From positions 1 to 32,000 of the forward strand of contig JAPZAR010000031.1 in assembly GCA_027460535.1 (NCBI GenBank): a DNA stretch of 32,000 nucleotides, written 5' to 3'. Both the position numbers and the translations under genes were made by a program. The notes below the pieces were generated by a model. That model did not search any database. It was not told the origin of the DNA and saw nothing but the letters and a program-made list of their open reading frames with translations. The stretch is from Candidatus Methanoperedens sp. GTDB lineage: Archaea > Halobacteriota > Methanosarcinia > Methanosarcinales > Methanoperedenaceae. Of the stretch, positions 9,610 through 26,730 are shown piece by piece; the first letter of the stretch is position 1; every line of letters begins with the position of its first letter.

Positions 9610-9611
9610 AT

Positions 9612-10160
9612 ATGGAAAAATCCAGTTTCGAATCCACCCAGGAATTTTTTGACCTGTGGTTAAGGACATACAATGCCACAATGGGCAGGCTCGTCGAGAT
9701 GCCTGCCCTTGGTCCAACACGTGAGAAATCTGAAAAAATGATGAAGGGTTTCTCTACCTTTATCAACCTTTATACTGCAGGGATGGATTCCAATTTCAAT
9801 TTCCAGAGTATATTTACAGAAGCAATGCGCAGAGTGCGTGAAAAGACTGCAACTGATATGGAAGGGGAAATCACCCCTGAGAAATATAAGGATTTTTACA
9901 AGATCTGGATTGAAACTTACAGCGAGACCTTCAGGGAATTCCTGAAATCAGGTCATTTTGCGTCGGACATGGGGAAATTGAATTCGTATTTAATAGAATT
10001 TCAAAAATACAACAGGGAAATGCTTGAAGAGAATTATCTGAAACCTATGAATCTCCCTACAAAGACGGATATCGACGAGATCAACAAAGAGTTGTATTCT
10101 CTAAAGAAAACAGTAAAAGAACTGACCAGCCAGATCAAAGAACTAAAAGAGAAAAAATAG
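9612..10160 (+). CDS. phaE: Class III PHA synthase subunit PhaE
   Basis: The likely start is the ATG at 9612, 2 nt after the upstream stop; the track start 9570 overlaps the upstream gene. The N-terminal W..TY....G...E.PALGP motif and the C-terminal LPTKTDIDEINKELYSLKK coiled tail are typical of PhaE. The gene is adjacent to phaC. Confidence 0.75.
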   Translation: MEKSSFESTQEFFDLWLRTYNATMGRLVEMPALGPTREKSEKMMKGFSTFINLYTAGMDSNFNFQSIFTEAMRRVREKTATDMEGEITPEKYKDFYKIWIETYSETFREFLKSGHFASDMGKLNSYLIEFQKYNREMLEENYLKPMNLPTKTDIDEINKELYSLKKTVKELTSQIKELKEKK

Positions 10161-10181
10161 GTTTTTGGGTGATGAGATACC

Positions 10182-11339
10182 ATGAACGCACTTAATTTAA
10201 TAGGAGATTATGAGAAATTCAAACATGGGGTGGAACTATTCCTGGAGCCCCCCGATTTTTCGGTTGGAACCACGCCTTCAGAGATAATATTTCGCGAAGA
10301 TAAGATGAAACTTATCCATTATATCCCGATCGTAGAAAAAACATATCCAGTTCCAATACTCATAGTGTACGCACTTGTGAACCGGTACTATATTCTGGAT
10401 CTCCAGCCAGATAAAAGTGTGATAAAGAAGCTGCTGGATGAGGGTTTTGATGTCTATATCATTGATTGGGGGTATCCCTCGGGCGCAGACAGATATCTTA
10501 CAATCGACGATTATGTGATCGGTTATGTAAATAATGCAGTGGATAAGATTCGAGAACGGTCTGGATTGGATAAGATCACGCTGCTCGGTGTATGCCAGGG
10601 AGGAACCTTTTCTGTGATGTACGCTGCACTGCACCCAGAAAAAGTAAAGAACCTGATCACTTTAGTGGCCCCCATAAACTTTGATACAGATAAAGGACTT
10701 CTTCATATCTGGGCAAAGAGCTTAGACGTGGACAAAATCGTGGACTATTATGGAATTGTTCCAGGAGATTTCCTTAATGGGGGATTCTTGCTCACAGACC
10801 CATTCAGGCTTATGATTGACAAGTATGTAGGCCTGCTTGAGAGAATTGAATGTGAACCTGGTGATGCTGCATGCGAGCTTCGCAATGAAGAAACTGTCAG
10901 CAACTTTTTGAGAATGGAAAAATGGATATTCGACAGCCCAGGACAGGCGGGTGAGGCCATCAGGCAGTTCGTCAAAGACTGCTACCAGAAGAACTTGCTC
11001 ATTAAAAACAAGATGGTGATCGATGGAAAGGAGATTAATTTGAAAGAGATCTCCATGCCACTGCTTAATATCATGGCGGAATTTGACCATTTAGTTCCCA
11101 ATGAAGCAAGTAAACCACTGAATGATGCGGTATCAAGTTCTGATAAAGAAATGCTTGTTTTTCCGACAGGGCATATAGGTATATTTGTGGGTTCAAAATC
11201 CCAGAAAGTGGTTTGTCCTAAGATTACTGAGTGGTTAAAACCAAGGTCCCTTGATGGAAGCGAGAAGAGAAGTTTGAACAAATCGAGGAAAAGAAATTCA
11301 AACAAAAAGGAAAGAGTCGCAAGGCAAGGAGGAGTATAA
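10182..11339 (+). CDS. phaC: Class III poly(3-hydroxyalkanoate) synthase catalytic subunit PhaC
   Basis: Alpha/beta hydrolase with the lipase-box variant G-V-C-Q-G-G (Cys codon at 10593-10595). Candidate Asp (EFDHLVP) and His (PTGHIGIFVGS) complete the triad. The size of about 355 aa plus a basic tail fits class III. Confidence 0.85.
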   Translation: MNALNLIGDYEKFKHGVELFLEPPDFSVGTTPSEIIFREDKMKLIHYIPIVEKTYPVPILIVYALVNRYYILDLQPDKSVIKKLLDEGFDVYIIDWGYPSGADRYLTIDDYVIGYVNNAVDKIRERSGLDKITLLGVCQGGTFSVMYAALHPEKVKNLITLVAPINFDTDKGLLHIWAKSLDVDKIVDYYGIVPGDFLNGGFLLTDPFRLMIDKYVGLLERIECEPGDAACELRNEETVSNFLRMEKWIFDSPGQAGEAIRQFVKDCYQKNLLIKNKMVIDGKEINLKEISMPLLNIMAEFDHLVPNEASKPLNDAVSSSDKEMLVFPTGHIGIFVGSKSQKVVCPKITEWLKPRSLDGSEKRSLNKSRKRNSNKKERVARQGGV

Positions 11340-11340
11340 A

Positions 11341-12078
11341 ATGAGACTTGAAAATAAGGTTGCAATTATTACTGGGGCAGGAAGCGGTATTGGTAAAGAG
11401 ACTGCACTCCTGTTTGCAAAAGAAGGAGCTAACGTTGTTGTCGCCGATGTAAATGAAAAGGCTGGTGAGGAGACAGTGGCAGAGATCAAGAAAAATGGAG
11501 AGGCATTTTTTGCTAAACTGGATGTAACCAACAGGGAACAATCAAAACAGATGGTTAAAACTACTCTGGAAAAATATGGTAGAATAGATGTTTTGATAAA
11601 TAATGCAGGCATTGTTCAGGATGCCCTCGTAACAAAAATGACAGAGGAACAGTGGGACAGGGTTATTAATATCAATCTTAAAGGGCCTTTTAATTGTATC
11701 CAGGCTGTGGTTGAAGCTATGATCAATCAAGGAAGTGGTGCAATTATCAATACATCTTCCATCGTCGGACTGAATGGCAATGTCGGGCAGACCAACTATG
11801 CTTCAACCAAAGCCGGTCTAATTGGCATGACAAAGACCCTGGCAAAGGAACTTGGGAAAAAGGGGATAAGGGTCAATGCAGTGGCACCTGGATTTATAAT
11901 GACTCCAATGACCTCAAATGTACCTGAAAAAATACTTGAAATGATGAGAGAAAAAACTCCACTGCGCAGGCTGGGTGAACCAAAAGATGTTGCACATGCA
12001 TATTTATATCTTGCTTCAGAAGAGGCGAGGTTTGTTACCGGTGCGGTGCTTTGCGTTGATGGAGGACTCATAATATAG
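11341..12078 (+). CDS. fabG: Short-chain dehydrogenase/reductase, FabG/PhaB-like (candidate acetoacetyl-CoA reductase)
   Basis: TGAGSGIG Rossmann motif, NNAG, and a S...Y..SK catalytic set. The start lies 1 nt after the phaC stop. Confidence 0.8.
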   Translation: MRLENKVAIITGAGSGIGKETALLFAKEGANVVVADVNEKAGEETVAEIKKNGEAFFAKLDVTNREQSKQMVKTTLEKYGRIDVLINNAGIVQDALVTKMTEEQWDRVININLKGPFNCIQAVVEAMINQGSGAIINTSSIVGLNGNVGQTNYASTKAGLIGMTKTLAKELGKKGIRVNAVAPGFIMTPMTSNVPEKILEMMREKTPLRRLGEPKDVAHAYLYLASEEARFVTGAVLCVDGGLII

Positions 12079-12087
12079 GTGAGAAGT

Positions 12088-13266
12088 ATGAATAATGTAG
12101 TTATTGTATCGGCAACAAGAGCCGCAGTCGGGAAATTCGGGGGAATTCTTAAGGATTTTAGCCCAGGACAGCTTGGTTCTGTTGTATTGAAAGATGCCTT
12201 GAAAAGGGGTAATGTTGAATCAAATGACGTTGATGAGGTAATCCTGGGAAATGTTCTTTCAGCAGGTCATGGTCAGAATGTGGCAAGGCAGGCTGCAATC
12301 GGAGCGGGGATTCCAAAAGAGATACCCTCCTATTGCGTGAACAAAGTATGCGGCTCGGGTTTGAAGTCAGTCGTTCTGGGGGCACAATCTATCATGCTCG
12401 GTGATGCAGATGTTGTTCTGGCAGGCGGCGTCGAGTCCATGTCCATGGCTCCGTATGCGCTGAAAAAAAACCGCTGGGGAGCAAAGATGGGAAACGATGA
12501 AGTTGTGGATTTGATGATATATGATGGGCTGTGGGATATTTTCAACAATTACCATATGGGTATAACAGCAGAGAACGTAGCGGAAAAATATAATGTTACA
12601 CGGGAAGAACAGGATGAATTCTCGGCACAAAGCCAGAATAAAGCAGAGGCTGCTATCAAGGCAGGCAAGTTTAAAGAGGAGATTATTCCAGTAGAAGTTC
12701 CCCAGCCAAAAGGCGAGCCTGTGTTCTTTGATACAGATGAGTTTCCCAGATTCGGCACAACGAAAGAGATACTTGCAAAATTAAAACCTGCATTTAAAAA
12801 GAACGGGACAGTAACTGCGGGGAACGCATCAGGAATTAACGATGGAGCCGCTGCGGTTCTTTTGATGTCTGAAGAAAAGGCAAAAGATAAAGGACTTGAG
12901 CCTCTGGCGACTATCAAAAGCTACGGGTTAGGCGGCGTGCCTCCGGAAATAATGGGCATTGGGCCTATTGATGCAAGTAAAAAAGCTCTACAGCGTGCCA
13001 ATATCTCCGCAGGTGAGCTTGACCTGATAGAACTCAATGAAGCCTTTGCAGCGCAGAGCATCGCTGTTATCAGAGAACTGGGTTTTAATCCAGAACATGT
13101 TAACGTTAACGGCGGCGCTATAGCCCTGGGGCATCCCATAGGAGCAAGCGGTGCAAGGATATTGGTTACTCTTCTCTATGAATTAAGGAGAAGGAAAGGC
13201 ACATACGGCCTTGCTGCACTCTGTATCGGAGGTGGGCAGGGTATTGCTATGGTGGTAAAGAGGTGA
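12088..13266 (+). CDS. phaA: Acetyl-CoA acetyltransferase (bacterial-type thiolase II, PhaA/AtoB-like)
   Basis: VVIVSATR...[11 protein letters not shown] (nucleophilic Cys), [31 protein letters not shown]. The ATG at 12088 is preferred; a GTG at 12079 is the alternative. Confidence 0.9.
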
Positions 13267-13270
13267 TATT

Positions 13271-14125
13271 ATGAACATGAATGGAAAAAAATTGGAAGGA
13301 AAAGTTGCTCTGGTCACTGGAGGCTCAAGAGGAATCGGGCGGGCGATTGCCTTGCGGCTTGCGGAAGACGGCGCTGACGTTGTTATCAACTATCAGAACA
13401 CAAGAGAGCATGCCGAGAAGGTATCAAAGCTGATTGACCAGATTGGCATGGCAGATGAACTTGAAAAATTAACCATAAAGATAAACCACATGGATAATAA
13501 AGAGCAAGCAAAGGAAATATCAAAGTTAATAGAGGCTATCGGAAGGCACTCTTATGTATACCAGGCAAACGTCAGTAATCTTGAGCAGGTAAACAGGATG
13601 CGGGACGAAGTGATCGGGCAGTTCGGGAAAATAGACATTCTGGTTAATAACGCAGGAATAGTCAGGGATAAATCTTTTGTCAAAATGACTCCTGATATGT
13701 GGGGAGATGTTATGTCGGTGAACCTGGATGGAACCTTCTACTGCACCAAAGCATTCATAGAAGGAATGCTGGAAAGGAAATATGGCAGGATTGTGAACAT
13801 TTCATCGGTTGTGGGAAGAATGGGCAATTTCGGCCAGGCGAACTATACAGCTTCAAAGGCAGGCATGATAGGTCTTACAAAAGCACTGGCAAAGGAGTTT
13901 GCTGGCAAGGGTATAACTGTAAATGCAATAGCCCCGGGATTTATAGATACTGATATGGTAAAAGGGGTTCCTGATGAAATAATCGAAAAGATTCTTGCCA
14001 AAATACCACTTGGAAGACTGGGGAAGGCATCCGAGGTCGCAGGTGCGGTGGCCTACTTGGCATCACTGGACGGGGATTACATAACAGGTCAGGTGATAGA
14101 TATAAATGGGGGACTTTATATCTGA
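13271..14125 (+). CDS. fabG: Second FabG/PhaB-like SDR reductase, with an internal insertion of about 33 aa
   Basis: TGGSRGIG, NNAG, S...Y.ASK and PGFIDTDM motifs. The extra segment lies between beta2 and beta3 (see finding). Confidence 0.8.
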   Translation: MNMNGKKLEGKVALVTGGSRGIGRAIALRLAEDGADVVINYQNTREHAEKVSKLIDQIGMADELEKLTIKINHMDNKEQAKEISKLIEAIGRHSYVYQANVSNLEQVNRMRDEVIGQFGKIDILVNNAGIVRDKSFVKMTPDMWGDVMSVNLDGTFYCTKAFIEGMLERKYGRIVNISSVVGRMGNFGQANYTASKAGMIGLTKALAKEFAGKGITVNAIAPGFIDTDMVKGVPDEIIEKILAKIPLGRLGKASEVAGAVAYLASLDGDYITGQVIDINGGLYI

Positions 14126-14603: not shown

Positions 14604-17600
14604 TCATTTTCGAACCAGCTTTGAAATCGAGTATAATCTCCACAAAGGCTTTGAATAGAAAAGGTATGCTGCCGTTAATCCGGTTATTAAAGCAAGTATG
14701 ACTGAACCAAGTACGTTGTGGATGACCTTCTTTATGTCGGATACCATTGATTTCTCAGTTATCGTAAAATTTACAGGATAGAACTCCCCCCAATTATTGT
14801 TCCTCTCCATAGCATGTATATAAATTACATGTGCTCCGACTGAAATATTAGTTGTATTTATCTCTGCTGTAACATCCTCTACCTGCGAGTCATATGTACC
14901 ATTTATCAGGCCAAGCGGTGTTCCATTCCCGGAAGTGCCCATTCTATCCATAAAATACTCGGCTGCCCTTATTTTCATCTTATAACCTGCCATTGCCCTC
15001 GCAGTCAGTTTTAACTTTTCGCCTTTGACAGCTTCGATATTATCCAGAGCCGCCTCCCTTATCACCGGTGAAACCAGAAATCTTTTTAGATTGTGTGATT
15101 GCAGGATGTGACAGGATTCGCAATTCTGTTCCAGCGCATGTGGCTCGTCGCTGATATTTATTGCCCCAAAATTTGGATTTTCCTGATAGATGTGACAGGA
15201 TTTGCAAGATCTTGGTGTAGTGTATGTTGGAACATGCGACTGCGGCTCTTGGCTGTCCAAAGTGTGGCATGCCCAGCATGCTTTATCAATCGAATCCGAC
15301 AAAAGGGTATCAATGGATGCATTTCCGTTCAATCTGTCGTGCTTTCCTAATCTTGATGAAACTGCATCAAAATTAGGAATATTAAGTTTTCTTGATGTAT
15401 CATGGCAGTTAACGCAATCAGCCCACATCCTTTGATCGGTATACAGGTTCGGTATGTGAAGATTTTCCGGTACTTTCCCCACTATGAAGGTATCATTGGG
15501 AAAAAGCCAGCTGCTATTATACCCAAAAGCTGTGGTGTTGGCGGTAGTTTTCATTATCGAGGGTGAAATCGCCAGCACGTCCTTAAGTATTACGAAATTT
15601 GGATTTGCCTGAACAACTGACGTAAGGTTTGCGCTGAAAATTGTTACATTGATATCTTGGTATCCTTTATATCTGATTGGACGGGTATAACTAAACTCAG
15701 AACCGCTGGTAACTGCCCAATCCTCGACAACGCTATTGTTAATCATTAAAGCCAGCAATGCCTGTTTGCTATCAGTACTAACGTCATTAAGTTTCAGAGA
15801 AATGTTCTCTCCAAGGTTCCACGTTTCCCCCACCTTTAGATATTTCTGTAACGAGGGAGAGGGAAGGAATGTCCCAAAATCGGTGTTGATCTGGTTTAAA
15901 ACATAATCGTCGCCATTATAGTATATCTTACTTTTATTTTCAGATATGAAATCAACGAATACATTGGTGAAATATATGATATCATTATTGGGGTTTTCTT
16001 CTAGATCTCTGTCAATAACCAGATACCGTTGTTTTTCTGGAGAATACCGGTACAGATGACAGGCAAAGCACGCAGTGCTGTTGGTTTCTGCATGGACTCT
16101 AGCTGTCCTGAATCCACTGAACTGAATGAGGCTTTGATTTGCGCCTTTGAATATTGATGTTATATTCAGGATAATAATAGGCATCTTGAACGTTCCATTG
16201 TCTATAGTAGTATATTCCTCATAGTTATATTGAGAGCCAACACCTATTGAGAATTCATCTACAATACTATAGTTCTTTAAAAGCTGAATTAAAGCCTCAC
16301 TCCTTTCTGAGGAGATCTCCACCACTTTCAAAGAATATCCATTACCGAGATATACGCTCTCTCCCTCAAAAGCTGTTAGTTTATTTCGTTCTTTTTCAAG
16401 TTCAATAAGCGAGGTTGTATTCTTGTATATTAAAGTTGCATTGCCCCAGGCTTCACTATTGTTTTTAACCAGATGGCAATAGGTGCACTTGAAAGAATCA
16501 ATTAAATTATCTGTCGACGCGTAATGTGATGTAAGAGCCAGATCCGTATTATTATCCGTTATCACCAGACTGTTTAGATGGCAGATTTGGCATTGTACTG
16601 AAGTGGTTATATTATAATTTGTAGCATTATTTTGATTACCATTTAGGCTTGCATTCTGGAAATGCGAATAAACCATAGGCTCTTGATAGGGGGATTGTGA
16701 GAGTGAATGGCAGTCATTGTTGTTACAGTTTTTTGGAGTTTTGTAATTTAGTGGATGCCCACCTGCAGGCTGTGCATTCTCACTTCCATCCCCATCTCCA
16801 TGGCAAGCCCAGCAGCGGAGATTGTTGCTGTTTAAAGAAGTTATAGCATTTGCATTCAGAGTCCTATGTACCGCTTTATCGTCATTGGCGGCTGAAAAAT
16901 TAACATGGTATGGCGCAGCTCCTCCAATATCGTGACAGCTAATGCAATTTTTGTTACCCCCTAAACCCATGGTACTATCGTGGAAAGTTGGAGGAGTTCC
17001 GCCGCCGCGCACATGGCAGCCATAGCATTCTGTGCTGGCTGTAAATGGAGTATGGTTCAAGGCAACAAAGGAGATTCTGGGATCATTTGGTGCCCCCCAT
17101 ATACTATTTCCACTGTTATTGTAATGGCAAAAGGCGCAATCCTTTGATTGGATAAGGTTATTGGTTGTTCCATAATGAGATACCCGGTCAAATATGTTAA
17201 AATAAGAGGCATTCGTATCTACACTGTTGCTATGGCAGGTAGTACAGCTCGTGGATATGTTAATGTCTTTACCATTTTGTATGTGCTCGCTAACCAAAGG
17301 TGCATTGAAAAGATTGCTGACATGACAATCTGAACACATTTTTACCAGGCTTAGATCTATTGGATGGATTTTTGGAGGAGTGCCATCCCAGTGGCAGGCA
17401 TAACAAGCATAGTTCAAATCATTTACATTGTTCACTCGTCCATGCATACTGTTATTTAAGGAAGTAAGATTTACGTATGGCATCCCCGCCAAAATAGTCC
17501 CATGACAATCAATGCAGTTTTCAAACCCTGCCATTGCGGCAGGCATCAGGTTTATAGTGATAAATAGGAGCAGACTGAAAATTATAGATCTGTTATTTAT

Positions 17601-17609
17601 GACATGCAT
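14604..17609 (-). CDS. Membrane-anchored multiheme c-type cytochrome (16 heme motifs) with two inserted S-layer-like beta domains
   Basis: N-terminal signal peptide. By eye I count 15 CxxCH plus 1 Cx4CH (CNNNDCH). Two paralogous non-heme domains lie at about aa 405-505 and 585-700. There is a C-terminal TM helix (VLGSVILALITGLTAAYLFY) with a basic tail. Confidence 0.9.
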   Translation of the reverse strand: MHVINNRSIIFSLLLFITINLMPAAMAGFENCIDCHGTILAGMPYVNLTSLNNSMHGRVNNVNDLNYACYACHWDGTPPKIHPIDLSLVKMCSDCHVSNLFNAPLVSEHIQNGKDINISTSCTTCHSNSVDTNASYFNIFDRVSHYGTTNNLIQSKDCAFCHYNNSGNSIWGAPNDPRISFVALNHTPFTASTECYGCHVRGGGTPPTFHDSTMGLGGNKNCISCHDIGGAAPYHVNFSAANDDKAVHRTLNANAITSLNSNNLRCWACHGDGDGSENAQPAGGHPLNYKTPKNCNNNDCHSLSQSPYQEPMVYSHFQNASLNGNQNNATNYNITTSVQCQICHLNSLVITDNNTDLALTSHYASTDNLIDSFKCTYCHLVKNNSEAWGNATLIYKNTTSLIELEKERNKLTAFEGESVYLGNGYSLKVVEISSERSEALIQLLKNYSIVDEFSIGVGSQYNYEEYTTIDNGTFKMPIIILNITSIFKGANQSLIQFSGFRTARVHAETNSTACFACHLYRYSPEKQRYLVIDRDLEENPNNDIIYFTNVFVDFISENKSKIYYNGDDYVLNQINTDFGTFLPSPSLQKYLKVGETWNLGENISLKLNDVSTDSKQALLALMINNSVVEDWAVTSGSEFSYTRPIRYKGYQDINVTIFSANLTSVVQANPNFVILKDVLAISPSIMKTTANTTAFGYNSSWLFPNDTFIVGKVPENLHIPNLYTDQRMWADCVNCHDTSRKLNIPNFDAVSSRLGKHDRLNGNASIDTLLSDSIDKACWACHTLDSQEPQSHVPTYTTPRSCKSCHIYQENPNFGAINISDEPHALEQNCESCHILQSHNLKRFLVSPVIREAALDNIEAVKGEKLKLTARAMAGYKMKIRAAEYFMDRMGTSGNGTPLGLINGTYDSQVEDVTAEINTTNISVGAHVIYIHAMERNNNWGEFYPVNFTITEKSMVSDIKKVIHNVLGSVILALITGLTAAYLFYSKPLWRLYSISKLVRK

Positions 17610-17688: not shown

Positions 17689-18753
17689 TCACCTCTTCCG
17701 TCCGAACATATAACCTGCCAAAAGCAATATCATTGCCATGGCGGCATTAAATCCCGGTGTCTTCTTTACAGGTATTGTCACTGCAGTTGGCCCTGGTTTT
17801 TGTGGTGTTTCTTCCCCCGCTACAGGTGTTTCAGCCGGTACCACCACGCCCTTCAAGCTTGTTATTGCAAATGGCGAGAAGGAATTTGTCTTTGCCTCAA
17901 AGTGAGTGAAAAGCTCATCTTTTCCTTTGGATCCAGTTTCCAGGAGTTCCCATTTTGTTCCATCCCATCTTTCAAGGGCAACATCGGTATCTTTGAATTC
18001 GTTCGATATGAGCCATGAATTCTCGACCTTGAATCTTACAGTAGCTTCTTTTATGTTCTTTGGAACTGCGAAGCCAGATGTTCCGACCCAGATATTGACG
18101 TATCTATAAACGGTCCCAGGTGCGCTTGTTTTTACAAGTGTTGACGTATCTTTTAGAAGTTCGATCTGAGTATTTATCAACCCTGCACTGACAGCCCCAA
18201 TGATTTCGAGCTGATAGACTGGGAGTATTGGAGTAGTGAAATTGTATCTTGTCGGCAGATCCTTGGCTATGAACTCTTCTTTGGACTCTTTAGCCTGGAT
18301 ATTTGAGTAATTCTCACCTGATGTCCCGCCGCCACCGCCGCCGCCTGATGGGCCACCACCACCGCCACCTGATGGACCACTGCCGCTGCTTCCTGTTGAA
18401 AGTTGTAGATTTTCCTCCTGGTCATCTAAAGCTGCTCTTGGTCCGGTCCATGAAGCCGACTTCCCGGTAGCAGTTGCTGTTATCGTCATGGAATCGCCTG
18501 CATTGACACTGACTGGCAGGTTTGCGAGCTGGAATACATAATATCCGCTGGCAATACCTCCAGTTGTCTGAGTCACATTTGCGGTGGTAGTACTATTTGA
18601 ACCTCCAGAAACTGAAAGCACTACTGTCACACCATTTATGGGCGTGCCATCGGTATCAGTTACCCGGCCGAATACAGTAAATGGGTTCCCATCCGATGCC
18701 ATTACAGGTATTATTGCTAACAGGAAAAAAATTGAGAAGAGAATTTTTTTCAT
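17689..18753 (-). CDS. PGF-pre-PGF domain surface protein with a PGF-CTERM archaeosortase sorting signal
   Basis: The likely start is MKKILFSIFFLLAIIPVMA at 18753, 10 nt after the upstream cytochrome stop; the track start 18810 overlaps that gene. Domain order is CarboxypepD_reg-like domain, poly-Gly linker, ENYSNI...YRYVNIW...FSPFAI (PGF-pre-PGF pattern), a Pro/Thr linker, then TPGF plus TM plus GRKR at the C-terminus. Confidence 0.8.
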   Translation of the reverse strand: MKKILFSIFFLLAIIPVMASDGNPFTVFGRVTDTDGTPINGVTVVLSVSGGSNSTTTANVTQTTGGIASGYYVFQLANLPVSVNAGDSMTITATATGKSASWTGPRAALDDQEENLQLSTGSSGSGPSGGGGGGPSGGGGGGGTSGENYSNIQAKESKEEFIAKDLPTRYNFTTPILPVYQLEIIGAVSAGLINTQIELLKDTSTLVKTSAPGTVYRYVNIWVGTSGFAVPKNIKEATVRFKVENSWLISNEFKDTDVALERWDGTKWELLETGSKGKDELFTHFEAKTNSFSPFAITSLKGVVVPAETPVAGEETPQKPGPTAVTIPVKKTPGFNAAMAMILLLAGYMFGRKR

Positions 18754-18763
18754 AATATCCTCT

Positions 18764-21700
18764 CTATTTTGTTCCCACAAATGTGTACGTGTTTCCATTG
18801 GTGGTACCATTCCCTTTTATAAAGTAAGGTTTGTAGCCTGCCATGGTGAAATTGGTTCCTGAATAAAATCCGACACCTCCACTCGGCACTATGATCTGGT
18901 AACTGACCCATATCTGGTTGGTTGAATCCCATTTGAGCACTTTTGAGACGCCAGGAATACCTGTTGAAGATGTATACAGGAGATTTCCTGCATACAACGT
19001 CGGGTTCGGGTTAAGCCAAAGCACGATGAGATTATATTCTGATACCAGTGTGTCGGTAGTGTAGTATGTGGTGCCGCCGCTTGTCAAATTCGGGGCGATC
19101 GATCCATTAAAAACCGACCTTGCACCGTGGCATTTGTTACAATCTATAGTCTTACTGATATTATGGAACGTCCAATCTGTAGCTGTACTGGTTCCTCTGT
19201 AAGTTGTCCATTTATTGGTGCTTTGATTCCTGTAGACACCACCTTTGACTTTTCCTGTACTCACATTAACCACATAGTCTGTACTATTCCTTACAAAAGT
19301 ATCGTCATGACATGCATCGCATGTTACATTCCCGTGGCTTGAATATTCCCTGAAGTTAGAGGTAGTGTGCTCGGATGTTGCTACATGGCATGCTTCGCAA
19401 CCTGTTTTAGTTGTGGCAATGTTATTGACCTCGAACGTATGTTCTGAACCATTATTGATGGTTGAATTCATATGGCAGTCAGCACATGTGAAACCCAGGG
19501 AAGTTTTATGGGATCCGTCATAATAAATATCACGGTCAGAGATGTGATGAGAACTTCCGTTGTGGCATTTCTCGCACAACTCCGTAACATTCCCCACTGT
19601 ATCATAGACAGGCGACCCGGCTGAACTGCTTGAGGTGGCATTGTAAAATGCAATGTATATCGGTGATGTGCCATTACCACTATATGTATCGTTGTGGAGG
19701 TTATGACAAACCCTGCACTGGACACCTTGGTTATTTGATGTGTTATAACGCGCGCTGTTTGACTGATTATACATCGGAGGTGAATGACATTTTAAGCAGT
19801 AGCCGCTGTAATATGTTCCATGAAGACTTGATTGAGCATGGCCGCTCTGGTTCCATGCTATGGTTTCATTCTCTATCTTAGGTTGTCCTCCACCAGTTCC
19901 ATTGTGGCATGTCAAAGTACATGTATAATACGGGAACATGCCTTTACCAACACCGCCATTGGTGCTGAGGGGAATACCTGTAAGATTGTAGTTATAGAAG
20001 TTGTACTCAACAGTCAGATTATGGTCATGGGTGTATAGCGATGAGTTAAGGGCGAACTGCTGCGTTGTGTTCGCAAAGTGGCACTGCGTGCAGTCTGCAT
20101 AATTCTGCCCGTACCCGTGATTTCCATGGCTTTCACTAAGGTTAACACCTTCAACGTGACAATTCCTGCATGAGTTGCTTTCATTCACGATGTAACCTGT
20201 GTAACCATTATGCTGTGTATCATAGCCAGCATGGCAATCTGTGCAGTTTGGTGCAGCGACATTCATTGTCTGGTTATGATTTGAGTTGTTGACTGCACTG
20301 GCGTATGAAGAGTGGCATTTGACGCAACCAATGTCTCCAAATGTCGGCGCTAATAATGAGCTCGTTACAGCGGACTTGGTACCATGACACTTATCACAAC
20401 TAACATCCTTACTTATATTGTGCAATGGCCATGTTGTTGGAGCTGCAGACCCATCTTTGTAGCTGGATATTAATCCTGTTGCTGTGTCATTATAGAGACC
20501 ATAAATTATTTTGACTCCCGTACTGTTAAGGCCGACTGCATAGCCAGTTGCATTCCTTGCAACTGTCTTGTCGTGACAGGCTTCGCATGTAACTTTACCT
20601 GTATGGTTCGCTGTGAACTGGAATGTATGGTCTCCTGATTTATGGCACACTTCACACCCAGTTACACCTGTTGTTAAGTTCGTGACTTCGAACATATGTG
20701 ATTGGTAATTGAATCTTGCACCACTAGTAGTATTCAAATGACAATCAGCACAATCAAAGCCAACTTGGGTCTTGTGAGTTCCTGCAAACTTGCTGTCGTG
20801 GCCATCTCCATAATGGCATTTTTCACACAAAACTGTAGCATTGGCAACCGTGTCATAGATTGTGTAACCCGCAAGAGAACTTAAAGTTGCGTTATAGAAC
20901 GCCAGTATTCCTGTCCCTGGACTACTAAACGATCTATTGTGGAGGTTATGACATACCCTGCAATTAATACCCTGCCAATCGGCTACTGGAATAAGTGTAC
21001 CCGATGATGCACTCGCATTATAATTCAGAGGCGACTTGCATTTGGCACAGGAATTCTTCTGGTCAGTGGGGGGTTCTACCAATGACTGGGCATGCGCACT
21101 CTGGACCCAGGTTTGTGATGCATTGTCGACTTTTACATTGCTACCATCGTGATGATGGCATGATGCCGCATCGCATGAATAGTATGGAAACGTTCCTACG
21201 CCCACACCACCATTACTCTTTAGAGGCATCTGTATCGTTCCTGTTAGATTGTATTGATAGAAGTTACGGATAATTGTCAGATTGTGGTCATGTACATAGA
21301 GTGACGCATTCAAACTGAAAGACGTGTTCATATTTGCAAAGTGACACATCGTACAATCATCGGTTGATGTATGTTTTTCATCTTTGGTTTGATGGCACCC
21401 TGAATTCCTGCACGTGTTACTTTCGTTCACTGTAAAACCCTTGGCTCCTGTTGTATGACCGTAGCTGGGTACATATCCTACGTGACAGTCAATACATGCA
21501 GGCGCGCTTGCATTCAGGGTCTGGTTATGCTTTGAGGCGTTATATGCAGTGGCGTATGTAGGATGGCAATCTGCACATACGAGGCCAGTCGTAATCGTGC
21601 CGTTAAATACAGAGGTTGCATTGTGGCATTTGCTGCAATCTACACTCTTGGTTATATTATGCAGGGGCCATGTTTTAGGTTTACCTCTGTCCAATACATA

Positions 21701-22969
21701 AGTAGTCCAATTACTGGTCGGGGTCGGTTTCCACAGACCGTAATTACCGTCACTTGATACGGAATAGTTCGTAGCATTTACTGTTGTAAAAGTTTGATCA
21801 TGGCATGCTACGCATTCAACTTTACCTGTATGCATTGACGTGAACTGGAATGTATGGTCTTCTGATTTATGGCACACTTCACAGCCGGTCACATTTGAGG
21901 TAGTGTTCTTGACCTCGAATGTATGGAACTGCGTTAAATCACTTTCGATTGATCTGTTCGCATGGCAACTGGCACAGGTGAAATTCGCACCAGCTGGGTC
22001 TTTGTGAATTCCTGCAAACTTACTGTCATGAGAGGTAGTTGTGTGGCATTTCTCGCACAATTCGGTAGCATTGTGAACCTGTACATAGACCGGGTAGCCC
22101 GCACGAGAGCTTAGAGTTCCATTATAGAACGCTAGCGGTTCTCCATTCACCGGGCTGCTATAAGAAACATTATGCATGTCATGGCATACCCTGCACTGGA
22201 TGCCCTGCCAGTCGGCCGCTGCCACAGGTGCGCTCTGGTTGGCACTTACGTTATAGTTGGGCGGTGACTTGCATCTGGCACATGACATCGTCTCACTGCC
22301 GGTATATGATTGTGCATGTTTACTCTGGTTCCAGCCGATGGTTATATTTTCCTTACTTTTGCTTGTATGGCAGGTCAGAGTACAGGTATAGTACGGGAAC
22401 ATGCCCTTGCCTACATGGCCGTCGGCGCTGAGGGGCATTCCTAAAAGATTGTAATTATAAAAATTGTATTCAACGGTGAAATTATGGTCATGTTGGTAAT
22501 AAGTATGAGAACTAGAAAGAGGAAACACTTTAGTAGTATTGGCGAAATGGCATTTTGTGCAGTCTGCGGGACTAGCTGCATTGCCGGTATGGGTGTTTGT
22601 ATCAACAGGACGCGATCCACTGGTTGCATGGCATCCAGGTTGACCATTTTGTAACGTATTACAGGTTGTCACTGTGACCTGGTATCCGATATAACCGCTA
22701 ACTGTATGCGTGCTAGTATCATATGCCCCCCTGTGGCAAATAAGACAGGCAGTTGTTTGGGAGTTATCTATATTATCATGTTGCCTCGGTAAAAAAGTTA
22801 TCGCGCTGTTGGAAGCGATGGCTGAAACATATGCAGGATGGCAGGCATTACAAGCATTATTTGTAACATCTTGAGCCGTATAGGTTGCAATCGCTTCCGG
22901 TATGGCTACCGCCACAGCCAATAAAATCAAACACATCAATATGCCGTTTCGTTTCATAGTACCCATCAT
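18764..22969 (-). CDS. Giant secreted multiheme c-type cytochrome, 1401 aa, about 36 heme-binding motifs in three 12-heme modules plus a C-terminal non-heme domain
   Basis: Signal peptide (ILMCLILLAVAVAIPEAIA). By eye I count 29 CxxCH, 2 CxxCK, 2 Cx3CH, 2 Cx4CH and 1 Cx9CH. There is no C-terminal TM. Confidence 0.9.
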   Translation of the reverse strand: MMGTMKRNGILMCLILLAVAVAIPEAIATYTAQDVTNNACNACHPAYVSAIASNSAITFLPRQHDNIDNSQTTACLICHRGAYDTSTHTVSGYIGYQVTVTTCNTLQNGQPGCHATSGSRPVDTNTHTGNAASPADCTKCHFANTTKVFPLSSSHTYYQHDHNFTVEYNFYNYNLLGMPLSADGHVGKGMFPYYTCTLTCHTSKSKENITIGWNQSKHAQSYTGSETMSCARCKSPPNYNVSANQSAPVAAADWQGIQCRVCHDMHNVSYSSPVNGEPLAFYNGTLSSRAGYPVYVQVHNATELCEKCHTTTSHDSKFAGIHKDPAGANFTCASCHANRSIESDLTQFHTFEVKNTTSNVTGCEVCHKSEDHTFQFTSMHTGKVECVACHDQTFTTVNATNYSVSSDGNYGLWKPTPTSNWTTYVLDRGKPKTWPLHNITKSVDCSKCHNATSVFNGTITTGLVCADCHPTYATAYNASKHNQTLNASAPACIDCHVGYVPSYGHTTGAKGFTVNESNTCRNSGCHQTKDEKHTSTDDCTMCHFANMNTSFSLNASLYVHDHNLTIIRNFYQYNLTGTIQMPLKSNGGVGVGTFPYYSCDAASCHHHDGSNVKVDNASQTWVQSAHAQSLVEPPTDQKNSCAKCKSPLNYNASASSGTLIPVADWQGINCRVCHNLHNRSFSSPGTGILAFYNATLSSLAGYTIYDTVANATVLCEKCHYGDGHDSKFAGTHKTQVGFDCADCHLNTTSGARFNYQSHMFEVTNLTTGVTGCEVCHKSGDHTFQFTANHTGKVTCEACHDKTVARNATGYAVGLNSTGVKIIYGLYNDTATGLISSYKDGSAAPTTWPLHNISKDVSCDKCHGTKSAVTSSLLAPTFGDIGCVKCHSSYASAVNNSNHNQTMNVAAPNCTDCHAGYDTQHNGYTGYIVNESNSCRNCHVEGVNLSESHGNHGYGQNYADCTQCHFANTTQQFALNSSLYTHDHNLTVEYNFYNYNLTGIPLSTNGGVGKGMFPYYTCTLTCHNGTGGGQPKIENETIAWNQSGHAQSSLHGTYYSGYCLKCHSPPMYNQSNSARYNTSNNQGVQCRVCHNLHNDTYSGNGTSPIYIAFYNATSSSSAGSPVYDTVGNVTELCEKCHNGSSHHISDRDIYYDGSHKTSLGFTCADCHMNSTINNGSEHTFEVNNIATTKTGCEACHVATSEHTTSNFREYSSHGNVTCDACHDDTFVRNSTDYVVNVSTGKVKGGVYRNQSTNKWTTYRGTSTATDWTFHNISKTIDCNKCHGARSVFNGSIAPNLTSGGTTYYTTDTLVSEYNLIVLWLNPNPTLYAGNLLYTSSTGIPGVSKVLKWDSTNQIWVSYQIIVPSGGVGFYSGTNFTMAGYKPYFIKGNGTTNGNTYTFVGTK
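19127..22852 (-). repeat. Intragenic triplication: three paralogous modules of about 417-425 aa (first Cys of each at aa 40, 465 and 882)
   Basis: The motif order is conserved in all three modules. DNA-level identity persists, e.g. tgaactggaatgtatggtct.ctgatttatggcacacttcaca at about 20614 and about 21841 (offset 1227 bp). Confidence 0.9.
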
Positions 22970-23194
22970 CTATCCATTGTTCTGCTTGAAATGGCGTTTT
23001 TTTCTGCAGATATGAATATAATATCGTTTATGTACTACCCCTACTTATATATTTCGCATGATAGTAATTATAATGATGAAATATTTAATGATTATAAGTC
23101 TTTATGGATGTTACTGACTTTTGCCAGAAAGACATTTAGAAACAGATAAATTCTTAAATCAAAAATGCTATTATGCCCCTGTAGAGGTGCTAAC

Positions 23195-24466
23195 ATGAAA
23201 TTGATTGCGTATTTATTTTCACTATTGATCCTGGCGGCGCCGGCGGTCGCCTCGGATTGGAGCCAGTTCGGATATGATAGTTCTCATTCTGGATTTACAA
23301 CGGATAGCGTTGTACCTCCGCTTGTCTTGAAATGGACTGCAAACCTCTATTATAATACGGATTCATCCCCTGTAGTCGTGAACGGGGTTGTTTATGTAGG
23401 CTCAAACGGTGGAGTCCATGCGCTCGATGCAGAATCCGGAAAAGAGATCTGGAGGTCCCCGACAGATGGATTCATAGGAGCTGTTCCCATGGTCATGGAT
23501 GGGACACTGTACGTTGGGGGGAATGACGAACACTTTTATGCAATCGATATAAAAGATGGCTCTAAAAAATGGATCTATAAGGATGCTACCGGTGGGTTCG
23601 TTTCCTCCGCCACTGCTGCCGATAATCTTATTTATGTAGCATCAGAAGACGGCTCTCTCTATGTATTTAATCCCCAGGTCGGAGAACCTTCGTGGACTAA
23701 ATTAACAGGGAAAAGCATAGATTCGTCTCCTGCCGTTTCAAATAACACGGTTTACTTCGGGAATGACAATGGGGCTTTTTTTGCCCTTGATGCCGGGAAT
23801 GGCAGGGAGATGTGGCATTATTACACAGACATAGGTATGATAAAATCTTCACCTGCTGCTGCAAATGGCATCCTGTTCTTCGGTTCAAATAATGGAAATG
23901 TGTATGCTCTGACGGATAAAGGGGCTTTGAAATGGAAATTTTCGACAGGGAGCGATGTGGTATCATCTCCTTCGGTTAAAGATGGTACGGTCTTTGTAGG
24001 CTCAAAAGATTTTAACTTTTATGCTATTGATTCTGCAACAGGAAACATGAAATGGAAATTCCAGACAGCGGGCTTTGTTGATGCTTCATCTGCGATTTCA
24101 AATGATGTCATTTATTTCGGGTCGAAAAATAATTTCATCTATGCTCTTGATACTAATACAGGGAATCTCCTCTGGAAAAACTTGACTGGAATGGATACCA
24201 CAGATTACATAACCTCGCCTGCTATCTCCGGTAATATGCTTTATGCAGTAACCCATAGCGGAAAAGTATATGCATATTCTATTGCAGGGGAGGTTCAGAC
24301 AACTCCGGCCATAACACAGACAATAAAGGCTACAACAATATCGCCTACGCCAACACCTGTCCAGACACCGGCAGTTACCACCCCACAAAAGACGCCGGGA
24401 TTTGAATATGCAGCATTAATACTGTTAATAGCAGCGATAGTAAGGAAAAGAATTAATTCTAAATGA
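23195..24466 (+). CDS. PQQ-like (BamB-type) beta-propeller repeat protein with a PGF-CTERM sorting signal
   Basis: The start at 23195 (MKLIAYLFSLLILAAPAVA) has a gaggtg RBS. About 8 repeats of the SSPAV.NG.VYVGS.DG..YALD...G...W type are present. A Thr/Pro linker is followed by TPGFEYAALILLIAAIVRKR. Confidence 0.85.
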   Translation: MKLIAYLFSLLILAAPAVASDWSQFGYDSSHSGFTTDSVVPPLVLKWTANLYYNTDSSPVVVNGVVYVGSNGGVHALDAESGKEIWRSPTDGFIGAVPMVMDGTLYVGGNDEHFYAIDIKDGSKKWIYKDATGGFVSSATAADNLIYVASEDGSLYVFNPQVGEPSWTKLTGKSIDSSPAVSNNTVYFGNDNGAFFALDAGNGREMWHYYTDIGMIKSSPAAANGILFFGSNNGNVYALTDKGALKWKFSTGSDVVSSPSVKDGTVFVGSKDFNFYAIDSATGNMKWKFQTAGFVDASSAISNDVIYFGSKNNFIYALDTNTGNLLWKNLTGMDTTDYITSPAISGNMLYAVTHSGKVYAYSIAGEVQTTPAITQTIKATTISPTPTPVQTPAVTTPQKTPGFEYAALILLIAAIVRKRINSK

Positions 24467-24605: not shown

Positions 24606-25532
24606 ATGTTCAGGATACGTCTGCGTGATTTTATAATTACCAGTGATGACTGGATATTCGCGGTTGCGGATTATTGTCACGAGAAGGGCATCCGTTCTGT
24701 TCTCAGATACGTGCCTGACCCAGAGGGTTCAAGAGGAACGCGTAAAAAATTCCGCAAGCTGGACTTCGACGATGCCTTCAGCTTTATGAAAGCGAATCGC
24801 CCTCAGTGGGTGGATGATGTACATATTGTCCCATGGGATTGTGTCAAACAGGTGCTTGCTCCAGAGAAAAAACTCCCTATTTTGCTGAAAGACAATAAGA
24901 AACTGAGAGACATAGTAAACACTCTCCTGAAAGGGGATGTGCCACTTGAAAAAATGGGAGTGACGGGGTCTCTACTTGCCGGCTTGCAGAACGAATTCTC
25001 AGATATAGATTTCATCGTATATGGAAAATCCTGGTTCCAGGCGCGGGATATCATAGCAGAGGCAAAAAAGGAATGTTCTACCGTTAAAGAGATAAGCGAT
25101 GAAATGTGGCATGATATTTACAGGAAAAGGAAGCCCGAGCTTTCCTTTGATGAATTTCTCTGGCATGAGGTAAGAAAAGGAAACCGCGGCATGGTGGATG
25201 GGACATATTTTGACCTCCTTTATGTAAGGGACTGGGAAGATATCACCCGGTGTCTGAGGGGAAAAGATATAGGTATGGAAACGATCCGGGCAAAGGTCAC
25301 GAATGCCGATTTTGCATTTGACAGCCCCGCTATCTTTGAAATCGACCATCCCGAGATAAGCTGCGTGCTGTCCTATACCCACACCTATGCAGGCCAGGCA
25401 CTGGTAGGGGAAAGGATCGAGGCTCGGGGAATGGTAGAGGTCGTGGGTAATATCAAAAGGCTCGTTGTTGGGACATCAAGAGAACCAAAAGGGGAATGGA
25501 TACGTTCCCTCACGCTTCTTGAGAAGGAATAG
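24606..25532 (+). CDS. Predicted nucleotidyltransferase (Pol-beta superfamily; archaeal COG1665-like)
   Basis: GVTGSLLAGLQNEFSDIDFIVYG is the G-S ... D-x-D minimal NTase motif. It is preceded by an N-terminal domain of about 115 aa. Confidence 0.55.
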   Translation: MFRIRLRDFIITSDDWIFAVADYCHEKGIRSVLRYVPDPEGSRGTRKKFRKLDFDDAFSFMKANRPQWVDDVHIVPWDCVKQVLAPEKKLPILLKDNKKLRDIVNTLLKGDVPLEKMGVTGSLLAGLQNEFSDIDFIVYGKSWFQARDIIAEAKKECSTVKEISDEMWHDIYRKRKPELSFDEFLWHEVRKGNRGMVDGTYFDLLYVRDWEDITRCLRGKDIGMETIRAKVTNADFAFDSPAIFEIDHPEISCVLSYTHTYAGQALVGERIEARGMVEVVGNIKRLVVGTSREPKGEWIRSLTLLEKE

Positions 25533-26730
25533 GCTCTTTCCCGTATCCTATTTCTTCCTTTGTCAAATAGCATGCCGGGTCATCCGCCCAGACGTTGCCA
25601 TATATTGCCTCTGCACGCACGCGGAAGTTCCCGTTACATATTTCGAACCATTTGCATCGGGCGCACCTGTCCGCATTTGCTTTTATCAGGGGCTTCCTGT
25701 TCTTGAGACCAGCCATCAGTGGATTGCTTTTATCTGTCCATATCTCGCTGAATTTCCGCTCCTTTACGTTACCGAAGGAATAATGTCTCCAGAACTGGTC
25801 TGCATGTACCGATCCGTCCCATGAAACACAGGCTATGCCGATGCCTGAGGAATTGCCCTGGTTCATCTGGAGAAGTTCATACACCTCTGCCGCACGTTTG
25901 GGATATTCTTTCAGCAAACGGAAGTAAACATAAGGACCGTCTGCGTGGTTATCTACAGTCAACACCTCAATAGGGAAGCCATTATCATGCAAAGCCTTTG
26001 TCCTGTCCATAATGAGATCGAGCGTCTTTCGGCTTTCTTCATGTGATAGTTCTTCTTTTACCAGTTTTGAGCCGCGCCCTGCATATACAAGATGGTAAAA
26101 ACATACTCGGGGGATTTTTTCCTTTTCAAGCAGGTCGAATATGGCCGGGATATCCTTCACGTTCTTCTTATTGATAGTGAAGCGCAGGCCCACCTTAATG
26201 CCTTCTTCAAGGCAGTTGCGCATACCCTGCAATGCCAGATCGAATGAGCCTTTTACGCCCCTGAATTTATCGTTGGTCTCTCTCGTCCCGTCCAGCGAAA
26301 CACCCACGTACGAAAGCCCAATCTCTTTCAAGACCTTCGCCTTCTTTTTGTCGATCAGTGTACCATTCGTGGAGATGACCGCACGCATCCCTTTTGACCT
26401 TGCGTACAGCGCAAGCTCAGGTAGATCAGGACGCATGAGCGGCTCACCGCCGGAGAAAAGGATTACTGGCGCGCCGAACTGTGCAAGGTCGTCGATGAGC
26501 TCCTTTCCTTGCTGCGTCGTTAGCTCGTTCTTATACTCAATGTCCTTTGACTGGGCATAACAGTGCACACATTTCAGGTTGCAGCGCCTGCCCATGTTCC
26601 AGACCACTACCGGTTTTTTATCCTTTGAGAACTGCAATAAATGCGAGGGAAGTTTCCCGGAATCGCGCCCGTACCTGAGAGCGTCTGAGGGTTCAACGGT
26701 TCCGCAGTAAAGCTTTGAAATTCCTATCAT
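25510..26730 (-). CDS. Radical SAM/SPASM enzyme, NirJ-like; candidate alternative heme biosynthesis AhbC/AhbD
   Basis: CNLKCVHCY (Cx3Cx2C) and a C-terminal Cys-rich SPASM region (CARCKWFEICNG...ACY). The N-terminal LYCGTVEPSDALRYG motif is, as I recall, typical of the NirJ/Ahb group. Confidence 0.6.
   Translation of the reverse strand: MIGISKLYCGTVEPSDALRYGRDSGKLPSHLLQFSKDKKPVVVWNMGRRCNLKCVHCYAQSKDIEYKNELTTQQGKELIDDLAQFGAPVILFSGGEPLMRPDLPELALYARSKGMRAVISTNGTLIDKKKAKVLKEIGLSYVGVSLDGTRETNDKFRGVKGSFDLALQGMRNCLEEGIKVGLRFTINKKNVKDIPAIFDLLEKEKIPRVCFYHLVYAGRGSKLVKEELSHEESRKTLDLIMDRTKALHDNGFPIEVLTVDNHADGPYVYFRLLKEYPKRAAEVYELLQMNQGNSSGIGIACVSWDGSVHADQFWRHYSFGNVKERKFSEIWTDKSNPLMAGLKNRKPLIKANADRCARCKWFEICNGNFRVRAEAIYGNVWADDPACYLTKEEIGYGKEPIPSQEA

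Follow-up and report, generated by a model that had tools for sequence, protein, structure and literature searches.

In this study, we report the analysis of a gene for a very large multihaem cytochrome found in a stretch of 32,000 nucleotides from Candidatus Methanoperedens sp. (assembly GCA_027460535.1, contig JAPZAR010000031.1, positions 1 to 32,000 of the forward strand), which is called the window below and to which all coordinates refer. The gene occupies 18764..22969 on the minus strand as a single long open reading frame (ORF) of 1401 amino acids. Its product shows 100% identity to a hypothetical protein from a Ca. Methanoperedens sp. metagenome-assembled genome, and its close relatives all come from bins of Methanoperedens/ANME-2 (ANME, anaerobic methanotrophic archaea) or from metagenomes. 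The subject of the study is one haem site of this protein, here termed site 6, at which two of three repeated modules carry the motif CxxCK.

The 36-haem cytochrome and its modules

The protein was found to consist of three modules of about 415 amino acids, each with 12 haem motifs, followed by a haem-free C-terminal domain of about 110 amino acids. A signal-peptide-like segment, MMGTMKRNGILMCLILLAVAVAIPEAIAT (22883..22969, minus strand), precedes the modules; it was read from the sequence without a prediction tool, and its cleavage site is inferred. The three repeats, all on the minus strand, can be aligned residue for residue and extend over residues 31-457 (module 1, 21599..22879), 456-870 (module 2, 20360..21604) and 873-1290 (module 3, 19100..20353). 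The C-terminal domain, residues 1291-1401 (18767..19099, minus strand), is without a transmembrane segment. Together the modules hold 29 CxxCH, two CxxCK, four CX3-4CH and one CX9CH motif, a tally that agrees with the count of 36 haems given in a preliminary description of this DNA.

Site 6 reads CARCK in module 1 (residues 230-234, 22268..22282), followed by SPPNYNVS; CAKCK in module 2 (residues 641-645, 21035..21049), followed by SPLNYNAS; and CLKCH in module 3 (residues 1058-1062, 19784..19798), followed by SPPMYNQS, all on the minus strand. At every other position of the protein the residue after CxxC is His. The preliminary description had assigned the three motifs to the same site, and they do share one alignment column; its positions for the two CxxCK motifs were also correct. 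The CLKCH motif that it reported is real, but the coordinates given for it, 19774-19788, were 10 nucleotides too low. One N-x-S/T sequon is present in the conserved NYN[AV]S that stands right after each site-6 motif.

The spacing of the cysteines at haem site 3 differs in each module, being CX9CH in CNTLQNGQPGCH (22628-22663), CX4CH in CRNSGCH (21392-21412) and CX2CH in CRNCH (20156-20170), all on the minus strand, so that one homologous site tolerates from two to nine residues between its cysteines. Haem site 5 is of the CX3CH or CX4CH form.

Conservation of the lysine at site 6

A hidden Markov model (HMM) of the three window modules was used to cut 55 modules from 32 homologues, and these were then aligned. 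The site-6 column contains Lys in 50 of the 55 modules and His in the remaining five; both x positions of the motif vary, and the S-P that follows it is nearly invariant, so that the pattern exceeds chance. In a neighbour-joining tree, four of the five His modules form one clade, made up mostly of terminal modules and including module 3, with one Lys module nested inside it, and the fifth His module arose separately. One module of the tree, P0006_m2, had been labelled as a His module by a regular expression; this label was rejected, the HMM alignment showing Lys.

Because Lys occupies 50 of the 55 positions and the His modules belong mainly to a single clade, lysine is, as judged from alignment and tree, the ancestral, consensus and selected state at site 6, and module 3, with its His, is a derived exception. 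The preliminary description had argued that the lysine is not a sequencing error and had proposed an alignment of orthologues as a check; the lysine proves to be conserved among them, and the case is stronger than first made, with Lys both consensus and ancestral.

Two further residues accompany the lysine. Modules of the Lys type retain an Asn four residues past the lysine (88%) and the Trp of DWQG before site 7 (100%), and both are lost in the His clade. As that clade is monophyletic, these changes describe the two groups and are not proof of coupling. Covariation of other columns with the Lys/His state was dropped as evidence, being confounded by phylogeny through the same four modules of one clade.

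Relationship of sites 6-10 to the OcwA and NrfA pentahaem core

A whole-module profile was searched against 1.8 billion representative proteins and yielded 137 relatives at E<=1e-10. Among these relatives a unit of the form WxxSxHA ... CxxC-X-SP ... W-x-G-[IV]-x-CxxCH ... L-CxxCH recurs, in which X is K, H, M or V. The whole-module profile recovered the octahaem tetrathionate reductase OTR and not OcwA, and its sites 7-11 align with OTR haems 3-7, three distal histidines included (E=2e-5). Site 6 is thereby colinear with the second haem motif of OTR, which we take to be that of the Lys-ligated active-site haem (haem 2); Mowat et al. in 2004 reportedly described the active-site haem of OTR as haem 2 with a lysine ligand. 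OcwA and the pentahaem nitrite reductase NrfA surfaced only with a sub-profile of sites 6-10, and a single-sequence search of the PDB gave marginal matches only.

The sites 6-10 profile was built from the Methanoperedens modules together with remote relatives (the mixed profile) and searched against the PDB. It matched OcwA (6i5b) at E=4.8e-24 over chain residues 256-433, corresponding to haems 5-9, the Carboxydothermus surface cytochrome 6qvm at E=1.4e-14, NrfA of several species at E=1e-8 to 4e-11, and OTR at E=8e-9. Of the NrfA structures, 2j7a was matched in two stretches (E=3.6e-11), and 1gu6 (E. coli, E=2.9e-8) and 6v0a in one stretch each. In the 2j7a alignment CakCkSP lies over CWNCKTP of haem 1, and sites 7, 8, 9 and 10 lie over haems 2, 3, 4 and 5; the five haem motifs are colinear with the order and spacing of NrfA, and the CK[ST]P context is common to module site 6 and NrfA haem 1. 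The matched segments of OcwA hold nine CxxCH motifs, the fifth of which is CLKCH.

Controls were applied to these matches. As a control for profile drift, sub-profiles of the Methanoperedens modules only and of the remote relatives only were compared, and gave an hhalign probability of 99.9% (E=1e-35). The Methanoperedens-only sub-profile matched OcwA by itself (hhalign 97.1%; HMMER E=7e-9 at PDB size), with the Lys column placed on CLKCH. When the OcwA sequence was shuffled with its Cys and His residues held fixed, the score collapsed from 39.0 bits to 9.1 +/- 5.1, with a maximum of 25.3 in 200 shuffles, so the match exceeds what motif spacing provides.

According to these profile alignments, sites 6-10 of each module are an NrfA-family pentahaem core of the OcwA kind, with OcwA as the closest solved relative, and the CxxCK column is the counterpart of OcwA haem 5 and NrfA haem 1. 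In the crystal structure of OcwA, haems 5-9 superimpose on haems 1-5 of NrfA (PMC6703420). The core, comprising WxxSxHA, site 6 and sites 7-10, extends over residues 204-384 in module 1 (21818..22360), residues 612-793 in module 2 (20591..21136) and residues 1030-1215 in module 3 (19325..19882), on the minus strand in each case.

The loop between sites 8 and 9

By homology to the corresponding loop of OcwA and NrfA, the segment between sites 8 and 9 is a candidate distal-pocket loop over the site-6 haem. It reads TTTSHDSKFAGIHK in module 1 (22001..22042), where it contains His314, YGDGHDSKFAGTHK in module 2 (20771..20812) and NGSSHHISDRDIYYDGSHK in module 3 (19505..19561), all on the minus strand, the last being the longer form of the His clade with HH, Arg and YY. 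The pattern of the loop in the modules is x-G-x-S-H-D-S-K-[F/Y]-[A/G]-G-x-H-K. Of the two histidines in this pattern, the second falls on the GxHxK histidine that NrfA and OcwA share, and the first (His314 in module 1) is a candidate distal pocket residue or ligand. NrfA has a catalytic His and a catalytic Arg in its distal pocket; the first His of the module loop, and the Lys or Arg near it, lie between the equivalents of haems 3 and 4, at an offset from the GxHxK histidine that differs from that in NrfA. Where OcwA has the pair HH380/381, which falls in its loop from haem motif 7 to haem motif 8 (the numbering of paper and chain being offset by 29 residues), modules of the Lys type have a single His (SHDSK), and in this protein SSHH is found in module 3 only. 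In NrfA, the inter-motif segment that corresponds to the one with HH in OcwA contains the catalytic Tyr and His.

Three forms of the loop were observed, namely SHDSK[F/Y][A/G]G in most Lys modules, N-x-R in about ten Lys modules, and the longer H..SRDIYY in the His clade. His is present in the His314 column in 45 of the 55 modules (82%), the lowest value among 11 consistently alignable non-motif histidines, the other ten being found in 49-55 of 55; two further His segments of the modules align poorly. The modules with the N-x-R form have no compensating His and often have Gln instead of Asn four residues past the lysine.

Proposed function of site 6

NrfA haem 1 and OcwA haem 5 stand beside the main haem chain, next to the haem-3 equivalent; the protein supplies each with a single ligand (Lys or His), and the distal pocket is open to solvent. 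For OcwA haem 5, a proximal His, an open distal position, a high-spin signal at g~6 and a solvent-exposed pocket under His380/His381 have been described, and the protein reduces iron oxides, binds flavin mononucleotide, and turns over nitrite and hydroxylamine slowly (PMC6703420). The reading that we favour, with moderate confidence and from sequence comparison, is that the 36-haem protein is a wire with one lateral, lysine-ligated and probably reactive haem in each module, the counterpart of OcwA haem 5 and NrfA haem 1.

Electrons delivered by a neighbouring S-layer cytochrome would, by homology, pass along sites 7-8-9-10 and onward, and site 6 would form a lateral tap in each module, located beside site 8 and off this path. 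The site-6 haem would have Lys as its proximal ligand, the CK[ST]P context being that of NrfA, and would probably be high-spin or weakly six-coordinate. The loop between sites 8 and 9 (SHDSK[F/Y][A/G]G) would cover the distal face of this haem and offer a His together with a Lys or Arg, and electrons could pass here between the protein and soluble or solid substrates in either direction. Module 3, with its His, would hold a derived variant of the same lateral site.

Several findings weigh against a reactive haem at this position. The catalytic Tyr and the Ca-site Glu of NrfA are absent from all three modules, which have CEKCH-TTTS, CEKCH-YGDG and CEKCH-NGSS after the haem-3 equivalent, compared with CGQCH-VEYY in NrfA. 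The Methanoperedens-only profile gave no significant match to the haem 1-3 segment of NrfA (probability 11%), so that equivalence to NrfA haem 1 rests on OcwA and on intermediate sequences; against the haem 4-5 segment of NrfA the probability was 66%, with GTHK..GFDCADCH aligned with GTHGAAGVTCADCHM. Remote relatives carry His, Met or Val at the site-6 position, a pattern as suggestive of ligand tuning as of catalysis. Each module has 12 haems and about 13 conserved histidines outside the motifs, which in number leaves one that could serve site 6 on its distal side, although such a count can neither assign ligands nor separate five- from six-coordination. AlphaFold2 modelling of the whole of module 2 (50-sequence alignment) gave a mean predicted local distance difference test score (pLDDT) of 53.6, and Foldseek searches of the PDB with this model returned noise; the 182-residue core (37-sequence diverse alignment) reached a pLDDT of 72.9, with values above 90 near sites 6-8, and gave no Foldseek match. 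Neither of these low-confidence models contains long helices such as the C-terminal three-helix bundle of OcwA, and in them sites 11-12 and predicted beta-strands come after the pentahaem core.

Some of these findings also bear on a second explanation, in which site 6 is an ordinary six-coordinate, low-spin Lys/His transfer haem, whose lysine tunes potential or reorganisation energy as a deliberate step in the wire and which is closed to substrates. The preliminary description had named both a redox step of this kind and a high-spin catalytic haem as options. The spare distal histidine, the occurrence of His314 in 82% of modules, the strong-field ligands (His, Met) used at this position by relatives, and the lack of the NrfA catalytic residues all agree with a tuning role. 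However, the homologous haem is open in both of the solved relatives that underlie the alignment, OcwA and NrfA, and the only candidate for a distal His is the least conserved of the alignable histidines, being replaced by the Asn/Arg form without compensation in about ten modules. Moreover, in the NrfA-type layout that we infer here, site 6 would be a side branch, where a step in potential would be of little use for through-conduction. We rate a pure tuning haem as the main rival of the favoured reading, and as less likely.

Relation to NrfA-type enzymes

A further explanation is that the modules are true NrfA-like enzymes, whose CxxCK haems have the physiological role of reducing nitrite, hydroxylamine or sulfite by six electrons outside the cell. 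In its favour, NrfA is matched both by the CxxCK-SP motif and by the five colinear haems of the core, OcwA can reduce both nitrite and hydroxylamine, if slowly, and Methanoperedens is a nitrate respirer that produces ammonium (PMC4683180). All three modules, however, are without the Tyr and Glu of CH-x-E-Y. The Pfam model of NrfA (PF02335) scored 14.0-14.4 bits against a cut-off of 24.1, and the NCBIfam models of NrfA had no match in the cytochrome. In addition, Methanoperedens possesses a canonical NrfAH of its own, distinct from this protein and complete in its catalytic residues (PMC4683180), and the 36-haem protein is paired with an S-layer conduit (see below), as would be expected for extracellular electron transfer. 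We consider such an enzyme improbable.

The search with family models was extended to NrfB, OTR, DmsE and HmcA in Pfam and NCBIfam, and all of these, like NrfA, remained far under their cut-offs; the OTR model TIGR04315, for instance, gave 28.8 bits against 375. The only models above cut-off in the two databases were those of generic multihaem domains (cytochrome c7, c3_2 and the MtrC/MtrF pentahaem domain). Of these, PF22113 (pentahaem domain II/IV) scored 63.4 bits against a cut-off of 30 over residues 930-1092, which contain sites 3-7. No beta-barrel domains I/III of the MtrC type were found by Pfam, and the modules are contiguous 12-haem units.

Since the Tyr and Glu are missing and no NrfA or OTR model reaches its cut-off, an NrfA-type nitrite reductase proper is unlikely on the sequence. 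The analogy with NrfA drawn in the preliminary description thus holds as regards its evolutionary basis, given the profile register to the OcwA/NrfA core, and finds no support as regards nitrite reduction of the NrfA type. In view of the missing CH-V-E-Y, the family models left below cut-off and the separate canonical NrfAH of the organism, the protein was not filed as an orthologue of NrfA, OTR or OcwA.

Gene neighbourhood and cellular location

Two genes follow the cytochrome gene on the same strand. The first (17689..18810, minus strand) encodes a secreted protein whose N-terminal domain is Ig-like/CarboxypepD_reg-like and which also has a long Gly/Ser linker, SGSGPSGGGGGGPSGGGGGGGTSG, and a PGF-CTERM-like tail. 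As listed, this ORF shares 47 nucleotides with the end of the cytochrome gene, and a typical signal peptide, MKKILFSIFFLLAIIPVMA, comes only after its first 19 residues, so that its true start is probably the internal MKKILF at nucleotide 18753. The second (14604..17609, minus strand) encodes a multihaem cytochrome of 1001 amino acids with an S-layer domain, a C-terminal hydrophobic helix, 15 CxxCH motifs and no CxxCK, which is the probable conduit feeding the 36-haem protein.

A similar arrangement was found in other genomes. At the locus of the orthologue P0006 (L006 10001-18287), in another Methanoperedens genome, the cytochrome is followed by a protein of 359 amino acids and an S-layer cytochrome of 995 amino acids. 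The 359-residue protein has no Pfam match, and its likeness to the product of 17689-18810 is one of position and size. In a third genome, the same chromosomal position (L001 9236-12883) is occupied by P0018, in which one module of the Lys type is fused to an S-layer part. The shared position is marked by POR, methyltransferase and peptidase M24 genes upstream and by HAD and glutamate synthase genes downstream.

The 36-haem protein contains 69 N-x-S/T sequons, against 26 +/- 4.3 in shuffles that preserve composition. The product of ORF 85-1701 and the S-layer cytochrome are likewise rich in sequons. The signal peptide, the enrichment in sequons and the recurring neighbourhood with an S-layer cytochrome suggest an extracellular, heavily glycosylated protein that works with a conduit spanning the S-layer, in agreement with the model that Chadwick et al. 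proposed for ANME archaea (PMC9012536).

Directly upstream of the cytochrome gene, and divergent from it, lies a gene for a PQQ-like/BamB-like beta-propeller (23165-24466, plus strand). The window also contains, upstream at 8524-14125 on the plus strand, a polyhydroxyalkanoate cluster of two PhaE-like ORFs, PhaC, two short-chain dehydrogenases and a thiolase, which agrees with the formation of polyhydroxyalkanoate in Methanoperedens.

Maturation of the CxxCK haem

A dedicated lyase of the NrfEFG/CcmF type had been proposed in the preliminary description as a further check, and no gene for one was found in the window or beside four relatives. This result is uninformative, since lyase genes need not be linked to their targets and since Shewanella matures CxxCK without a dedicated lyase, although some bacteria do need a special one (PMC12285233). 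Chadwick et al. describe several CcmF paralogues together with CcmH in ANME-2d; the legend of their figure marks CxxCH, their text mentions longer spacings between the cysteines, and CxxCK enters only with NrfE, cited as a precedent for a specialised lyase, and is not reported for the ANME cytochromes themselves (PMC9012536).

The requirement of some bacteria for a special CxxCK lyase, together with its absence from the loci examined here, also bears on an explanation in which the CxxCK motif does not hold a Lys-ligated haem, either because no haem is attached or because the ligand comes from elsewhere, as in OTR, the lysine being a structural relic. In OTR, the residue after CxxC is indeed not the ligand, the lysine of the active-site haem lying outside its CxxCH motif (PMC12285233), and remote relatives of the modules tolerate Val at this position, with extra histidines upstream. 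On the other hand, both cysteines and the lysine are retained in 50 of 55 modules with the haem-site register fully conserved, NrfA, in which Lys is the ligand, shows an identical CK[ST]P context, and the organism must already mature the CxxCK of its own NrfA. A site of this kind appears very improbable.

A radical SAM/SPASM gene (25510-26730, minus strand) is located about 2.5 kb from the cytochrome gene, and the gene of P0016, an S-layer cytochrome that bears a module, is closely followed downstream by another radical SAM gene (L003 17142-18323). These neighbours could be a coincidence or could represent a maturation factor.

Comparison with other multihaem cytochromes

OcwA of Thermincola potens shares with each module the order of WxxxxHA, the open-haem motif (haem 5, corresponding to site 6) and four more haems, as well as a distal-pocket loop between the same two haem motifs. 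The two also have a role in extracellular electron transfer in common, OcwA being a nonahaem terminal reductase at the surface of a host without an outer membrane. In contrast, the open haem of OcwA has CxxCH and an HH distal motif, and the modules have CxxCK and an SHDSK loop. [quoted passage not shown]

The modules and NrfA (2j7a, 1gu6, 1fs7) have in common a core of five colinear haems, the first with a CxxCK motif that S/T-P follows, and GxHxK ... V/F-x-C-x-D-C-H ahead of haem 4. Alternation of Lys and His is natural among NrfA clades, and a Lys134His variant is compatible with activity (PMC13562315). Unlike NrfA, the modules are without the CH-V-E-Y Tyr/Glu and are predicted to be without the long C-terminal helices.

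The second-best solved match, 6qvm ('Multiheme cytochrome cf'), has the same five-haem register, but differs in having CxxCH (CLECHS) at the site-6 position and another overall architecture. We take it to be the OmhA-type undecahaem surface cytochrome of Carboxydothermus ferrireducens. It was placed in the NrfA family by Soares et al. OTR of Shewanella oneidensis (1sp3) resembles the modules in the register of sites 7-11 and in the colinearity of site 6 with its second haem motif, and differs in that this motif is CxxCH with a lysine ligand from elsewhere in the chain and in being an octahaem protein.

The haem sites of the MtrC family are all CxxCH and bis-His. The modules are like MtrC, OmcA and UndA in their match to PF22113, in a match to UndA at E=1.3e-10, and in a role in extracellular electron transfer. 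These proteins are, however, decahaem outer-surface cytochromes in which beta-barrel domains alternate with the pentahaem domains, and the OcwA/NrfA register accounts for more of the conserved non-haem residues of the modules.

The large ANME cytochromes of types A, B and C (Chadwick et al. 2022, PMC9012536) occur in the same organisms with the same presumed role. Types A and B have an S-layer domain and a C-terminal helix, and type C has an N-terminal pectin-lyase domain; as the 36-haem protein has none of these, it fits none of the three types, although in some relatives this module is fused to S-layer domains.

Two other groups of cytochromes were noted during the searches. In the remote relatives P0038, P0040, P0042, P0043, P0050, P0056 and P0069, repeats of about 95 amino acids with three haems carry CxxCM-SP or CxxCV-SP at the equivalent of site 6, with extra histidines 8-12 residues upstream (NHGYN, YHxGxxH); several of these proteins also show a transmembrane helix at the C-terminus and a strongly acidic tail that contains CPECG pairs. 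The CxxCM/CxxCV motif is missing from one survey's list of non-canonical haem-binding motifs. The second group, comprising P0133, P0103, P0157, P0094 and P0101, consists of cytochromes of about 300-350 amino acids in which CxxCH-SP-xNW-xP is followed 16 residues on by CxSCK-F(P), and it is another group outside NrfA with CxxCK.

Significance

The CxxCK motif, the NrfA family, the surface reductases belonging to it, and the grafting of modules among such cytochromes are already known. In the searchable literature, no description was found of a conserved CxxCK haem in the large ANME-2d cytochromes or of a link between these and OcwA; no paper there contains both 'OcwA' and 'Methanoperedens', and CxxCK is mentioned in papers on Methanoperedens only for NrfA.

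A broader hypothesis, which we put forward tentatively and hold to be possible rather than probable, is that the giant extracellular cytochromes of ANME-2d, rather than being plain wires, are tandem OcwA/NrfA-type reductase units, each with a Lys-ligated, high-spin, substrate-accessible haem, and that one of the unexplained CcmF paralogues is an archaeal counterpart of NrfE dedicated to CxxCK. If this is true, every such molecule on the surface of Methanoperedens would offer several sites of catalysis or electron exit. The conserved lysine-type site also offers a reason for the extra CcmF paralogues in ANME genomes, and it extends the evolution of multihaem cytochromes by module grafting to the archaea and to a tandem-repeat format.

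The transfer of electrons from anaerobic methane oxidisers to metals, electrodes and partners is still argued from lists of genes obtained by counting CxxCH. Such counts miss haems, because only 29 of the 36 motifs of the present protein are CxxCH. A lysine-type haem at an active-site position, occurring once per module, provides a concrete and testable hypothesis for the point at which electrons may leave these proteins.

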